From the IMG/VR virus record IMGVR_UViG_3300035510_000237: a DNA stretch of 64,000 nucleotides. One strand, 5' to 3'. Positions 41,889 through 47,276 of the stretch are shown one piece after another. This DNA is from a virus. The notes under the pieces are model-generated. The model ran no database searches. It was given only the letters and a program-made list of their open reading frames with translations, and was not told the origin of the DNA. Every line of letters starts with the position of its first letter. The stretch's first letter is position 1. A program made the translations under genes and the position numbers.

Positions 41889-42410
41889 ATGAGTAAGATT
41901 TTGATTGTGGTTGATATGCAGAATGATTTTATTACCGGCCCTCTTGGAACTAAAGAAGCTCAAGACATTGTGCCTGCGGTAACTAGAAAGGTCAAAGAAT
42001 ATAGTGATACAACTGGAGTAGTTTTTTACACTAGAGACACTCATTTTAATGATTATCTTGAAACTAGTGAAGGAAAGGCTCTCGCTGTGAAGCATTGTAT
42101 TTACTGGACAGATGGATGGGAAATTTCTTATCAAGTATTGAAAGCTGAACATTTTTATAATGTTGAGAAAGCAACTTTTGGTTATATTTATTGGCCGGAG
42201 ACCTTTACTAAGCTTCCTATTATTCCTACGGAGATTGAGCTTTGTGGTGTCTGTACTGATATTTGTGTAATCTCTAATGCACTGATTCTAAAGGCTCAGT
42301 ATCCTGAAATTAAAATTACTGTAGATTCTAAGTGTTGCGCTGGTACTACTCCAGAAGCACATGAAGCTGCACTTACAGTCATGAGAAGCTGTCAGATTAA
42401 TGTCATTTAA
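41889..42410 (+). CDS. pncA: nicotinamidase / isochorismatase-family hydrolase
   Basis: VVDMQNDF and catalytic-Cys context LCGVCTDICV. Confidence 0.65.
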   Translation: MSKILIVVDMQNDFITGPLGTKEAQDIVPAVTRKVKEYSDTTGVVFYTRDTHFNDYLETSEGKALAVKHCIYWTDGWEISYQVLKAEHFYNVEKATFGYIYWPETFTKLPIIPTEIELCGVCTDICVISNALILKAQYPEIKITVDSKCCAGTTPEAHEAALTVMRSCQINVI

Positions 42411-42424
42411 GGAGGATATGATAT

Positions 42425-43285
42425 ATGTTTTATGTTGGTGATTTTTATAACGACCTTCTTCCGGTAGAAGTAAAGCATTTTCCTGATGGTTCTCTTCATC
42501 TTAACGGCGACTTCTTTCCAGTGCGTCAGATTTATTGGCTGTATGAGAATGATGAGGAAATCTTCACTCTTATTTGTCTGAAACGTCATTTTGACCAGCT
42601 TAATGGTTCAATTCGTCTGATTCTGCCTTACCTGCCTCATGCTCGAATGGACAGGACTAAGACCAATAAGGACGTATTTACTCTTAAATATTTTGCGGAA
42701 GTAATTAATTCTCTTAATTTTGAGGCAGTAAAAGTTCTTGATGCCCATAGTAATGTAAGTCTTGCTCTTGTTAATAATATTGTAAACGTTGACCCTACGT
42801 TCTTTGTTGAGAAAGCTATTAATGATATTCTTTCTCATACTACAGTTGATAATCTTGTGCTTTTCTTCCCCGACGAAGGCGCAATGAAGCGCTATAGCGG
42901 TCTTTTTGCTCGTTCTTATACTTTTGGTATGAAGAAGCGCGATTGGGAAACTGGGGAGATTCTTGGGTTGGATATTGTTAATCCTGAAGCTGTTAAAGAA
43001 AAGGAAGTCCTTATTGTAGATGATATTTGTTCTTATGGTGGGACTTTTTATCGTGCAGATAAAGCACTGCGAGAGGCCGGTGCTTATAGAACCTATCTTT
43101 ATGTTTCTCACCTGGAGAACAGTGTAATCAATGGAAAGCTGTACCAAGAAAGAGCTACTGTTAATCATATTTATACAACAAATAGCATCTTTAATGAGGA
43201 TAATGATGTGGACCAGAAAGTTACCGTATTTCCGGTATTTTCTTGCGAAGAGCTTTATAAGAAGGGAGTCAGATATTACCAGTGA
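42425..43285 (+). CDS. prs: ribose-phosphate pyrophosphokinase (PRPP synthetase)-like
   Basis: PRPP-binding loop VLIVDDICSYGGT; N-terminal Prs-like fold. Confidence 0.55.
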   Translation: MFYVGDFYNDLLPVEVKHFPDGSLHLNGDFFPVRQIYWLYENDEEIFTLICLKRHFDQLNGSIRLILPYLPHARMDRTKTNKDVFTLKYFAEVINSLNFEAVKVLDAHSNVSLALVNNIVNVDPTFFVEKAINDILSHTTVDNLVLFFPDEGAMKRYSGLFARSYTFGMKKRDWETGEILGLDIVNPEAVKEKEVLIVDDICSYGGTFYRADKALREAGAYRTYLYVSHLENSVINGKLYQERATVNHIYTTNSIFNEDNDVDQKVTVFPVFSCEELYKKGVRYYQ

Positions 43286-44255: not shown

Positions 44256-46043
44256 ATGATTAATAATTATAACCCTCTCTTAATGTGTGATTTTTATAAG
44301 GCTACTCATGCGGAGCAGTATCCGGCAGGACTAACAAAAATTGTTAGTTATTATACTCCACGGCTGTCAAGACTTCCTGATACTAATAAGGTTACTCTTT
44401 TTGGCCTTCAGGCTTTTATTAAAGAGTATCTGATTGGGATGTTTAATGAATGCTTCTTTAACAGAAGCGAAGAATATGTTGTTCATGAGTACGAAAGAGT
44501 GCTGAACAATTCTCTTGGCCGTGGAACTTATTCTGCTGAAAAGATTATTAAGCTGCATCGACTTGGTTATCTGCCTCTTTCTATTAGAGCTGTTCCAGAA
44601 GGAACTAGAACTTCTATTGGCGTTCCGCAGATTGAGATTAGCAATACCCATCCTGATTTTGTTTGGTTGGTAAATGCTATCGAGACTCTTCTGTCTTGCA
44701 CCATGTGGCATACCCAGGTATCTGCGGAAGTCGGTTATCGCTATTGGCAGATTGTTAAAAGGTATTGGGATGCTAGTTGCGATGATTTTGTTGATCCCCA
44801 TATGCTGCTTGGAGACTTTTCTATGCGCGGTCAGCAGTCTGCGGAATCCGCAATTAAATCCAGCGCTGCTTGGTGCCTGAGTTTTTATAATACCGCGACC
44901 GTGCCAGCTATTATGTGGTTGGAAGATAATTATAATTGTGATTCTGGCAAGGATGAAGTTGCCCATGGCGCAGTTTCGACAGAGCATAGCGTTATGTGCT
45001 CTAACTATGCTGTTGATGGCGATGAAATTACTCATATTAAGCGGCTTCTTACTGAAATTTATCCTGAGATTAGTTTCTCTATGGTATCTGATTCTTATGA
45101 TTACTGGAATCTTGTAACCAAAATTCTTCCTAGATGTAAGAAGGAAATCATGGAGCATAAGGGTTGTCTTGCTATTCGTGGCGATAGTGGAGACCCTGTA
45201 GAAGTGATTGCAGGTAAGCGTTTTTATCCTATTGATGGCGCACTCCTTGAGGAGAACGATGAAGATAAAATCGGTGATTGGTTCAACGATTGGGCATTTG
45301 AATACGGCATTGAATATAGTGATATTTATTACTTCCAGGATGCTAATGGAAAAGTTTATTCCGCAGACGTGGATATAGATTATAGTTATGAGTGCGGTTA
45401 TTATACTGATACTGAATACCGGTATATTGATTCCCTTAGAGTGGAATGGAAAGAAATTTCTCCCACTGCTGAAATTATGGGCACTGTTTGGGCGCTGTGG
45501 CAGGAATTTGGCGGCACCCTTAATTCTAAAGGGTATAAGGTTCTAAATCCTCATGTAAAGGCTATTTATGGCGATTCTATTACCCCTCAGCGTTGTGAAG
45601 AGATTTATAAGCGTCTTATGATGCAGGGCTTCGCTATTAGTAATGTTTCTCTTGGCGTTGGTTCTTTCTCTATGATGTGCCTTGAAAATATTGATAGTGA
45701 AGGTAAGATTTCTTATAGTCCTTATACTCGCGATACTTTTGGCATTGCTGTAAAGGCTACTTATGCCGAGGATAAGGATGGTAAGCCCATTATGATTTAT
45801 AAGCAGCCCAAGGCTTTGTCTTGGAAGAAGTCTCAGAAAGGATGCTGCATCGTAGCAGAAGATGGCGAAAGCTATACTGATGAACATACTCTGGAAGAGA
45901 CTGCCAATCATAAGTGCAAAAACTTGCTTATCCCTGTTTTCGCTAATGGGCAGCTTATTAGGCAGTATACACTTGATGAAGTTCGTAGAAATATGTATCC
46001 TGAGACGACGGAAGATTGGTGCGATGAACGTTATTACTGGTAA
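44256..46043 (+). CDS. nadV: nicotinamide/nicotinate phosphoribosyltransferase (NAMPT/NadV family)
   Basis: N-terminal LLMCDFYKATHAEQYPAGLTKIVSYYTPR matches NAMPT N-terminus; 595 aa. Confidence 0.6.
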   Translation: MINNYNPLLMCDFYKATHAEQYPAGLTKIVSYYTPRLSRLPDTNKVTLFGLQAFIKEYLIGMFNECFFNRSEEYVVHEYERVLNNSLGRGTYSAEKIIKLHRLGYLPLSIRAVPEGTRTSIGVPQIEISNTHPDFVWLVNAIETLLSCTMWHTQVSAEVGYRYWQIVKRYWDASCDDFVDPHMLLGDFSMRGQQSAESAIKSSAAWCLSFYNTATVPAIMWLEDNYNCDSGKDEVAHGAVSTEHSVMCSNYAVDGDEITHIKRLLTEIYPEISFSMVSDSYDYWNLVTKILPRCKKEIMEHKGCLAIRGDSGDPVEVIAGKRFYPIDGALLEENDEDKIGDWFNDWAFEYGIEYSDIYYFQDANGKVYSADVDIDYSYECGYYTDTEYRYIDSLRVEWKEISPTAEIMGTVWALWQEFGGTLNSKGYKVLNPHVKAIYGDSITPQRCEEIYKRLMMQGFAISNVSLGVGSFSMMCLENIDSEGKISYSPYTRDTFGIAVKATYAEDKDGKPIMIYKQPKALSWKKSQKGCCIVAEDGESYTDEHTLEETANHKCKNLLIPVFANGQLIRQYTLDEVRRNMYPETTEDWCDERYYW

Positions 46044-46482
46044 TTTGCTTGACGCAAAAGAAACTTATATTTGCCATCAGGTGAATTGTCAAGGCAAGAT
46101 GAACTCTGGCGTAGCAAAAGCTATCCGAGAAAAATACCCAGAAGTATTCAGCAGTTATCTTTTTAAATGTTCAGAGGCCGAATCCGCAGATAAGCTTTTA
46201 GGTTCTACCCAAATGGTAAAGACTAAAGATAATCATTTCGTAATTAATATGTTTTCTCAGTTTAACTATGGATATGATGGGCGACGTTATACTTCATATG
46301 ATGCTTTTTGGAATGCCTTGAATTTAATTAAAAACTCAGTAAGCGAAAACTCTACCATAGCTTTTCCCTTTGGGATTGGCTGTGGTAGAGGTGGCGCAAA
46401 TTGGAATATTATTTACGCCATGATTAAAGAAGTTTTTAATGACTCTGATAATATAGTGTTTTATAAAATGGAGGAGAAATAA
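46024..46482 (+). CDS. macro-domain (ADP-ribose-binding/processing) protein
   Basis: ICHQVNCQGKMNSGVAKAIREKYP; start overlaps nadV end in another frame. Confidence 0.5.
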   Translation: MNVITGNLLDAKETYICHQVNCQGKMNSGVAKAIREKYPEVFSSYLFKCSEAESADKLLGSTQMVKTKDNHFVINMFSQFNYGYDGRRYTSYDAFWNALNLIKNSVSENSTIAFPFGIGCGRGGANWNIIYAMIKEVFNDSDNIVFYKMEEK

Positions 46483-47276
46483 TGCCAGAAAAGAAAACTG
46501 CTTATTTTAAATATCCTCTTAATCCTAAAGAGGAAATTGAAAAAATTGTTGATTGGATTAAGAGATATTTTTATATAAATGCGACTCAAGAGACTTATGC
46601 AATTGTTGGGATTTCCGGAGGAAAAGATAGCACAATCACTGCGGCTTTGCTGGCTCGTGCCCTTGGGCCAGAGCGAGTCATTGGCGTTATGATGCCTTGC
46701 CATTATCAGGCAGACTTACAAGACGCAGAGTCGGTTTGCGAGTATCTCGGTATTCAGAAAATGACTATTGATATTGGCCCAGCTACTACTGCGCTTTATA
46801 AGTCTCTTGAAGCTTCTAAGAGCATGGCTTTTAGTGATGAAAATGTCCAGAGAATTACTACAAATACTCCTGCTCGTATTCGCATGACAACTCTTTATGC
46901 AGTAGCTGCTGCGGTTGGAGGTAGGGTAGCGAATACCTGTAATTATTCTGAAGATTATCTGGGATATTCTACAAAATTTGGTGATACTGCTGGAGATTTT
47001 TCTCTTCTTAGCCATTTTACTGCGACAGAAGTAAAGCAGCTTGGATATGCTTTGGGACTACCTAAACGCTTTGTTGATAAGGCTCCTACAGATGGGATGT
47101 GCGGCAAGACCGATGAAGAGAACTTTGGCTTTACTTATACTGAATTAGATAATTTCCTTCGGAATGAAATCTATCCTGATTATGACTCTTATCGTGATAT
47201 AATGGATAGGCATACCCGCAATCGTCACAAAATAGAAGATATGCCAGCTTATTTTTATAGTCCGCGTTATTCGTAA
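46482..47276 (+). CDS. nadE: NH3-dependent NAD+ synthetase
   Basis: PP-loop GISGGKDST; 264 aa. Confidence 0.7.
   Translation: MPEKKTAYFKYPLNPKEEIEKIVDWIKRYFYINATQETYAIVGISGGKDSTITAALLARALGPERVIGVMMPCHYQADLQDAESVCEYLGIQKMTIDIGPATTALYKSLEASKSMAFSDENVQRITTNTPARIRMTTLYAVAAAVGGRVANTCNYSEDYLGYSTKFGDTAGDFSLLSHFTATEVKQLGYALGLPKRFVDKAPTDGMCGKTDEENFGFTYTELDNFLRNEIYPDYDSYRDIMDRHTRNRHKIEDMPAYFYSPRYS

Follow-up and report, generated by a model that had tools for sequence, protein, structure and literature searches.

Phage operons read as “Prs + Nampt” pairs in fact encode two other enzymes, Adps and Namat, and have been named NARP1 (bioRxiv 10.1101/2024.02.11.579819; PMC12774641; PMC13586617). Adps turns ADP-ribose (ADPR) plus ATP into ADP-ribose pyrophosphate (ADPR-PP), which Namat joins to nicotinamide to form NAD+ (bioRxiv 10.1101/2024.02.11.579819); structures have been solved both for Namat (9W5X/9W5W; PMC12774641) and for Adps (PMC13586617). 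In 15% of NARP1 phages, the operon additionally encodes a Poa1p-like macro protein, and this type, whose experimentally tested representative is a protein of Vibrio phage Gary, is called Adpp: it removes the phosphate from ADPR-1''-phosphate, which RES-type NADases produce, and in this way supplies NARP1, an arrangement termed NARP1-AP (bioRxiv 10.64898/2026.01.28.702374). Here we describe a gene cluster of a gut phage, at positions 41889 to 47276 of a 64,000-nucleotide stretch of viral DNA (IMG/VR record IMGVR_UViG_3300035510_000237; “the window” denotes this whole stretch), which encodes a PncA-like nicotinamidase, a Prs-like protein, a NAMPT-like transferase, a macro-domain protein, and the NAD+ synthetase NadE. 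The cluster is very probably a relative of NARP1/NARP1-AP, and we consider it reasonably likely that it is a NARP1-AP-type module running through nicotinate and nicotinate adenine dinucleotide (NaAD).

An earlier sequence-only reading had labeled the two core proteins PRPP (phosphoribosyl pyrophosphate) synthetase and NAMPT, and neither label held. The Prs-like protein is much closer to the experimentally validated Adps of SPbetaL1 (37% identity, E = 5e-46) than to any solved PRPP synthetase, the best of which in the PDB reached only 57 bits. It scored under every NCBIfam PRPP-synthetase cut-off (92.6 versus 113 for TIGR01251), matched phrog_619 with 235 bits, and carries the PP loop DDICSYGGTF where SPbetaL1 Adps has DDLSSFGGTF. 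Judged from these comparisons it is an Adps homologue, that is, a predicted ADP-ribose pyrophosphokinase. The transferase, 44% identical to SPbetaL1 Namat, found its best sequence matches in the PDB in the two Namat structures (384 bits, compared with about 140 bits for true NAMPT). Its AlphaFold2 model (predicted local distance difference test [pLDDT], 84.8; predicted template modeling score, 0.85) likewise had Namat 9w5x as its top Foldseek match, with a template modeling score of 0.91. Since the closest relatives of the pair are validated Adps and Namat proteins, the core corresponds to NARP1 (ADPR to ADPR-PP to dinucleotide) and not to salvage through PRPP and nicotinamide mononucleotide (NMN), the enzymology proposed earlier.

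In that earlier scheme, PRPP synthetase and NAMPT would make NMN, PncA and NadE would be there for completeness, and the macro protein would reverse ADP-ribosylation or recycle ADPR. The Pfam and NCBIfam family names fit such a classical salvage pathway. We nevertheless regard it as very improbable, given the closeness of both proteins to Adps and Namat rather than to Prs and NAMPT, the loss of the Asp that defines nicotinamide specificity (see below), and the assignment of the macro protein to the Poa1p-like phosphatase family of NARP1-AP. Moreover, NMN salvage would need an NMN adenylyltransferase, and a search of all frames of the window, by regular expression only, yielded no nucleotidyltransferase motif of the form (H/T)xGH.

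The macro gene had been presented as an insertion into the NAD+ cluster. It does belong to the NAD+ module, but it is no novelty: the macro protein is assigned by sequence to the Adpp phosphatase family, and this part of the finding is already known, because NARP1-AP has been published. The protein matches phrog_335 (“phosphatase”) with 141 bits and, in a comparison made with the operon of Vibrio phage Pontus only, which is homologous to that of Gary, it shares 27% identity (E = 2e-15) with the phosphatase whose gene stands there between those of Adps and Namat; the match to yeast Poa1p (6LFU) is weak (E = 0.007). Membership in this family also speaks against the reversal of ADP-ribosylation or the recycling of ADPR that had been suggested for it. 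As in NARP1-AP, the gene lies inside the operon, and by analogy its product probably lets the pathway use ADPR-1''-phosphate from RES-type NADases. Two differences from NARP1-AP are that the macro gene follows Namat instead of standing between Adps and Namat, and that PncA and NadE are additional here.

For these two additional enzymes the earlier assignments were borne out. The PncA-like protein has an Isochorismatase match, and its closest solved relative is the Pyrococcus horikoshii pyrazinamidase/nicotinamidase 1ILW (E = 1.9e-11). Its D9, K94, and C126 are identical to the aligned D10, K94, and C133 of 1ILW, which we take to be the Asp-Lys-Cys catalytic triad, and its D50, H52, and H69 to D52, H54, and H71, presumably the metal ligands. 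The NCBIfam equivalog score is far under the cut-off, and the protein is therefore best described as a divergent nicotinamidase. NadE matches phrog_11189 and scores 165.3 bits with the equivalog-domain model TIGR00552 (cut-off, 63.65), in addition to its Pfam NAD_synthase match. The profile searches of each gene that the sequence-only reading had proposed thus recognized all five families, with catalytic or conserved residues intact, and the general idea of a phage NAD+ reconstitution module was right in outline.

What sets the cluster apart from NARP1 is the pyridine pocket of the transferase. The nicotinamide site of Namat comprises seven residues (Phe189, Arg192, Asp215, Ala242, Arg306, Asp13', and Tyr15'), among which Asp215 hydrogen-bonds nicotinamide; the D215A mutant makes 8.1-fold less NAD+ (PMC12774641). 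The equivalent residue of human NAMPT, Asp219, defines substrate specificity (PMC7096376; PMC4919578), with D219A losing activity and D219S switching substrate affinity (Khan 2006, as tabulated in PMC4919578). The window Namat keeps five of the seven residues, with Ala214 in place of Asp215 and Ser241 in place of Ala242; an intact canonical nicotinamide pocket is not present. In addition, His187 of SPbetaL1 is replaced by G186. All three substitutions (H187G, D215A/S, and A242S in SPbetaL1 numbering) are pocket-proximal and, in our alignment, universal to the group of homologues with Ala or Ser at position 215, and N212, A214, and S241 of the window protein are present in all 120 of the closest database homologues. 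Going by the residues involved, these changes would be exactly those expected for nicotinate use.

The remainder of the core resembles NARP1. Both genes lie on the same strand and in the same order, and the family-invariant Adps residues are kept: at each of the 27 positions with a conservation of 90% or more among canonical NARP1 Adps proteins, the Adps proteins of the Ala/Ser variant show the same consensus residue. Conserved in the window Namat are D12, R191, H244, R308, D310, and the stacking residues Y14 and F188. The clamp-loop Arg is conserved as well: TPRLSR aligns with TPRTSR of SPbetaL1, so that Arg39, at the third position, equals Arg40. In contrast, the clamp helix (GSF...TRD) holds a 14-residue insertion, and Tyr396 aligns to a Pro. 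The canonical Namat adenine-clamp motif is retained in the deep Ala/Ser lineages, represented by Phass-1 and locus L096.

The pocket type turned out to be tightly associated with the neighboring genes. We gathered viral loci around Namat homologues from IMG/VR and phage records (36 close, 80 retrieved with a mixed profile, and 80 with a canonical-type profile) and scored them for the residue at position 215 and, by hidden Markov models, for neighboring genes; the main counts refer to unique sequences flanked by 4 kb or more on both sides. PncA and NadE occurred together in 86 of 88 Ala/Ser-type loci, compared with 0 of 46 Asp/Glu-type loci holding either gene (Fisher's exact P = 6e-34). The absence from the Asp/Glu loci extended to hmmsearch E values of up to 10, with profiles built from Ala-type loci, from which very distant isochorismatases could escape. 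Adps adjoins Namat in 96 of 100 Ala-type loci, and NadE adjoins the Ala/Ser-type Namat in nearly all loci. The association is kept although gene order varies (PncA-Adps-...-Namat-Macro-NadE or Adps-...-Namat-Macro-NadE-PncA), and it is kept at deep divergence, with the Namat of Phass-1 (Ala) being 31% identical and that of the L096 lineage (Ser) 40%. The Adpp macro gene, too, is commoner in the variant, being found in 78 of 104 Ala/Ser-type loci and in 15 of 77 Asp/Glu-type loci, the latter next to the 15% published for NARP1 phages. The cluster is no chance assembly, the same set of genes being seen again in over 100 viral contigs as well as in the 80 genome-assembly loci described below. Among GenBank phage records, a Namat/NAMPT homologue is present in about 2,000; a NadE-like gene occurs in only 44 records and a PncA-like gene in 7, all 7 of them from the human gut. 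At the nucleotide level, the only relative was an unannotated human-fecal contig, MT835544, with a weak match.

These counts bear on the idea of two parallel routes, in which an ordinary nicotinamide-using NARP1-AP would operate while PncA and NadE separately push the host Preiss-Handler pathway (PncA, host PncB, host NadD, NadE). Such an arrangement would be compatible with the presence of every NARP1 and NARP1-AP component, with the merely 8-fold impairment of SPbetaL1 D215A, and with the occurrence of NadE in other phage contexts, e.g., in cyanophages and Bacillus phage G. We think it unlikely, as PncA would strip Namat of its own substrate, as both genes accompany one pocket type and never the other across lineages of 31 to 40% identity and despite rearrangements, and as the three substitutions are fixed clade-wide, a pattern that points to adaptation and not to drift.

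The pathway that we favor would therefore connect all five enzymes. Host immune NADases would cleave NAD+ to nicotinamide and ADPR or, in the case of RES enzymes, yield ADPR-1''-phosphate, from which the Adpp-family macro protein would take off the 1''-phosphate to leave ADPR. Adps would make ADPR-PP from ADPR plus ATP, and PncA would turn nicotinamide into nicotinate; the Namat variant would then form NaAD and pyrophosphate directly from nicotinate and ADPR-PP, and NadE would complete NAD+ from NaAD, NH3, and ATP. The phage would use this module against NAD+-depleting defenses. We infer the nicotinate specificity and the NaAD product, where canonical Namat yields NAD+, only from the pocket residues and the gene context. 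The argument is that PncA and NadE have a sensible place in the module only with nicotinate as the substrate of the transferase: if Namat used nicotinamide, it would compete for it with PncA and leave NadE without a pathway-derived substrate, whereas a deamidated route explains both how the pathway tolerates PncA and why it constantly includes NadE. It also requires no adenylyltransferase. Compared with the Preiss-Handler pathway (PncA, PncB, NadD, NadE), the first and last steps would be the same, with PncA deamidating nicotinamide and NadE amidating NaAD. Adps and a Namat-family transferase stand in place of PncB and NadD, so that NaAD would form in one step from ADPR-PP, reusing the ADP-ribose moiety where the Preiss-Handler pathway draws on PRPP plus ATP.

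Nicotinate use could alternatively be coupled to PRPP. In this case, the Prs-like protein would make PRPP, the NAMPT-like protein would make nicotinate mononucleotide (NaMN) from nicotinate, host NadD would adenylate it, and the phage NadE would finish. The pocket changes, which fit nicotinate use, suit this PRPP-based variant of the Preiss-Handler pathway, Namat retains activity with PRPP in vitro, the clamp helix is remodeled in the main clade, and the matching NCBIfam model is named nicotinate phosphoribosyltransferase. Against it stand the similarity of the Prs-like protein to Adps, with all family-invariant residues kept and scores under all PRPP-synthetase cut-offs, the frequency of the Adpp homologue, which has no role in a PRPP route, the canonical adenine clamp of the deep Ala/Ser lineages, and the ADPR-responsive regulator NrtR adjoining the cellular operons (see below). 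We consider this alternative quite improbable. Within the route through NaAD, the unchanged Adps, the frequent Adpp, the canonical clamp in deep lineages, and the clamp-loop Arg all favor ADPR over PRPP as the input.

Several points weigh against the proposed route through nicotinate and NaAD. In the main clade, which includes the window, the clamp helix carries an insertion of at least 10 residues, and Tyr396, the second stacking aromatic, is replaced by Pro; because of these alterations, a preference for ADPR-PP over PRPP is not assured. Namat also uses PRPP in vitro (PMC12774641), and it is possible that nicotinate and PRPP are converted to NaMN as a side activity or even as the main one. 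As SPbetaL1 D215A keeps about one-eighth of its activity, residual use of nicotinamide is possible as well. In two viral loci of the Ala type no PncA lies within 10 kb, and 10 genome-assembly loci with PncA and Adps gave no NadE match in the sequence retrieved, some of these loci ending near the operon. All Ala/Ser sequences fall on one side of a neighbor-joining Namat tree, for which reason we dropped the idea that the pocket arose several times by convergence. The association is one evolutionary origin faithfully retained, and the Fisher P value consequently overstates the independence of the loci. Finally, the deamidated route costs one ATP more than canonical NARP1; what advantage would compensate for this is a matter of conjecture, one candidate being that nicotinate is the prevailing free pyridine in the hosts.

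The module is not confined to viruses. From a scan of prokaryotic genomes, restricted to one genome per species, we kept 80 loci, mostly from metagenome-assembled genomes with few isolates, and the pocket carries Ala and Ser in all 80 of these bacterial and archaeal loci. The assemblies are labeled Lachnospiraceae, Oscillospiraceae, Ruminococcus, Elusimicrobia, and Methanomassiliicoccales. Of the loci, 57 combine PncA, Adps, Namat, and NadE, with NadE being either of the short NH3-type or of the full glutamine-dependent type. A homologue of NrtR adjoins the operon in 43 of the 80, compared with none of 181 viral loci. The Pseudoruminococcus massiliensis locus (L235, 6614-12324), which encodes PncA, Adps, Namat, a full-length glutamine-dependent NadE, and NrtR, is clearly chromosomal; other loci have phage-like flanks, such as that of Dysosmobacter segnis (L186), where the neighbors are an RNA ligase and a kinase as well as probable DNA methyltransferases (the latter recognized by eye only).

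ADPR is the most effective reliever of NrtR DNA binding (PMC2330246), and adjacency to an ADPR-responsive NrtR would suit this operon because the operon would consume ADPR. From its gene content, pncA-adps-namat-nadE-nrtR looks like an undescribed housekeeping operon for NAD recycling, and the phage most likely acquired the module from, or shares it with, Clostridia-type hosts. NrtR also regulates the described prs-nadV operons of Shewanella, Acinetobacter, and others (PMC2330246), with which the cellular modules have the “prs-nadV” pair in common; those operons consist of prs-nadV only, whereas the present ones are pncA-adps-namat-nadE(-nrtR) in assemblies labeled Clostridia, Elusimicrobia, and Methanomassiliicoccales. 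In sum, we see about an even chance that the Namat variant is a nicotinate ADP-ribosyltransferase that has not yet been described, and that PncA, Adps, this variant, and NadE make up an NAD+ recycling pathway in its own right; it would be native to many anaerobic gut bacteria, where the ADPR-sensing NrtR would regulate it, and their large phages would repeatedly carry it, in most cases along with Adpp, as a counter-defense to NAD+-depleting immunity. Like this module, NARP2 (NadV plus an NMN adenylyltransferase) and NARP3 (PnuC plus NadR; PMC13464706) are phage systems that restore NAD+ against depleting defenses. Unlike them, the cluster shows no adenylyltransferase (by motif search), NadR, or PnuC, and its input would be ADPR and not PRPP or nicotinamide riboside.

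Another difference from NARP1 is an 87-residue insertion in the window Namat, located after the SGDP motif and without a counterpart in SPbetaL1 Namat and most close relatives. It recurs at the same site in Tsamsa-like Bacillus phages, whose pocket is of the Asp type, and is also carried by some Ala-type gut phages and by many metagenomic homologues. In the model, its pLDDT is mostly 80 to 91, with a dip to 66 at residues 381 to 390, and helices (residues 328 to 349) are followed by strands (356 to 401); the insertion is thus predicted to be a folded alpha+beta subdomain. Its patchy distribution suggests gain or loss by recombination, with an added function.

The layout of the cluster is given in Table 1. 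The sequence-only reading had described a five-gene cluster. All five genes are on the + strand and the outer limits are exact, the ATG of PncA starting at 41889 and the NadE stop ending at 47276; three further open reading frames (ORFs) between the Prs-like and NAMPT-like genes had been missed, a YqeY/GatB-like gene and two paralogous Cys-rich ORFs, which brings the stretch to eight ORFs. Most cluster genes have good ribosome-binding sites, with a strong one before the 44037-44243 ORF. The probable start of the macro gene, ATG 46024, overlaps the final 20 nucleotides of the Namat-like gene.

Table 1. Genes and predicted transcription signals of the NAD+ cluster (positions in the window)
Feature	Position	Strand	Basis
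Promoter-like element before PncA	41828-41858	+	TTGATT-17-TATAAT with TG, 10/12 matches
PncA-like nicotinamidase, 173 amino acids	41889-42410	+	Pfam Isochorismatase, E 2.6e-22
Adps homologue (PRPS-like), 286 amino acids	42425-43285	+	SPbetaL1 Adps, 37% identity, E 5e-46
YqeY/GatB-like protein, 148 amino acids	43282-43728	+	Pfam YqeY, E 3.4e-13; phrog_1460
Putative internal terminator and promoter cassette	~43740-43830	+	Hairpin GCGCGCTCCCAA...TTGGGAGCGCGC, then promoter-motif copy
Small Cys-rich ORF, 68 amino acids, zinc-ribbon-like	43856-44062	+	ORF list; weak DUF6980 match
Small Cys-rich ORF, 68 amino acids, paralogue of the 43856-44062 ORF	44037-44243	+	ORF list
Namat-family transferase, 595 amino acids	44256-46043	+	NF006629, 423.7 bits vs cut-off 405
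Insertion of ~87 amino acids inside the Namat-like gene (residues 322-408)	45219-45479	+	Alignment gap vs SPbetaL1
Adpp-family macro-domain protein, 152 amino acids	46024-46482	+	Pfam Macro, E 6e-8
NadE, NH3-dependent NAD+ synthetase, 264 amino acids	46482-47276	+	Pfam NAD_synthase, 1.1e-48
Intrinsic terminator at cluster end	47296-47321	+	10-bp stem, 5 GC pairs, then TGTTTTTATT

The cluster is bracketed by a promoter-like site (41828-41856) and the strong hairpin terminator at its end. The upstream site includes, at 41835-41858, a perfect copy of the motif TTATTAAAAAATATGATATAATAT, which is repeated across the window, and this copy follows a hairpin at about 41798-41835. The internal cassette contains a terminator-like site (43773-43790) and promoter-like sites and is predicted to divide the cluster into two transcription units. 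The motif TTATTAAAAAATATGATATAATAT, an A-tract with an extended -10 element, has nine + strand copies in the window (7790, 7852, 13163, 24666, 33269, 34841, 36386, 39143, and 41835) versus 0.01 expected by chance, and a tenth copy, which bears an indel, occurs near position 43806. Each of the three that were inspected (39143, 41835, and ~43806) stands directly 3' of a hairpin terminator. The motif is probably the mark of one temporal class of phage transcripts, with the NAD cluster among them.

Regarding the extra ORFs, the GTG start of the YqeY/GatB-like gene overlaps the Adps stop, and from this arrangement the gene appears to be translationally coupled to Adps. Bacillus phage Tsamsa has a homologue (gp191) adjoining NARP1, as do a few further loci, and YqeY/GatB-like proteins, called “tRNA amidotransferase” in phage annotation, occur in or beside the NARP1 operons of several unrelated phages, amounting to 11 of the 181 viral loci (e.g., L001 7941-8378, which is Tsamsa gp191, L035, L046, and L195). 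Both 68-residue ORFs share the Cys pattern CxxCxxxCxCCxFY. The first had no PHROG match and only the weak Pfam match listed in Table 1, the second had no Pfam or PHROG family match, and a third Cys-rich ORF, of 65 residues, lies upstream at 40390-40587; none of the three exceeded a Pfam cut-off or was found in PHROG. Clustering the extra ORFs of the Adps-Namat gap across related loci yielded only patchy families and none that is universal: RtcB-like proteins in about 20 loci, small uncharacterized proteins, and HAD-like proteins in 7 loci. The RtcB-like ORFs, recognized by eye, lie between Adps and Namat in some 20 related viral loci (e.g., L038 8485-9771). Seven loci without the macro gene have, between Namat and NadE, a 153-residue ORF with a DxDxT motif that we read as HAD-like (e.g., L047 11664-12140), which may be an analogous substitute for the Adpp phosphatase.

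The cluster sits among RNA-repair-type genes. Upstream (39196-41796) are a cREC_REC cyclic-phosphate-processing receiver domain, an exonuclease of the RNase T-like kind, and an RNA ligase that has a PHA02142 OB-fold domain; downstream (48162-49699), the cluster is followed by genes for a calcineurin-like phosphoesterase and for an AAA_33 kinase. In Dysosmobacter segnis, too, the module has a similar RNA ligase and kinase at its flanks. In part of the phage, TAG seems to be read as a sense codon. A suppressor tRNA with anticodon CTA lies within a cluster of 14 tRNAs (21371-27752), and with TAG taken as sense three proteins become full-length: a GIY-YIG homing endonuclease with 8 in-frame TAGs, another endonuclease (GIY-YIG/NUMOD3) with 3, and an amidase+SH3 endolysin with 2. 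Pfam domains of these proteins extend across the TAG positions. The sites providing this evidence are 25272-25346, 28124-29026, 49812-50747, 54996-56099, and 57327-58085. Just 3 of 62 long ORFs on the + strand end in TAG, the NAD genes are free of it, and Phass-1, a distant relative, has been placed in a “code 15” clade.

Three elements of this picture appear to be new: the remodeled Namat pocket, its co-occurrence with PncA and NadE, and the cellular operon flanked by NrtR. We found no paper in the searchable full-text literature that links NARP1, Namat, or Adps with PncA, NadE, nicotinamidase, or NaAD, and no such link in the text of Osterman 2024, the supplementary files of the aRES paper, or the RyR-domain paper; nor did the searchable literature contain a description of the cellular pncA-adps-namat-nadE(-nrtR) operon. 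Should the proposed specificity fail, the cluster would still be a well-supported, if ordinary, NARP1-AP module with two auxiliary NAD genes. For annotation, Gly187, Ala/Ser215, and Ser242 (SPbetaL1 numbering) together with neighboring pncA and nadE offer a rule for telling apart two kinds of “NAMPT-like” phage genes, and the Namat variant offers a clean test of how a single Asp controls amide-versus-acid specificity in this enzyme family. If our interpretation is true, the module would constitute a fourth biochemical route by which phages rebuild NAD+, and it would add a new reaction to NAD metabolism, the direct synthesis of NaAD from ADP-ribose pyrophosphate. It would also mean that NARP1-type chemistry is not solely a viral invention, but is part of regulated housekeeping recycling in Clostridia-rich gut communities.

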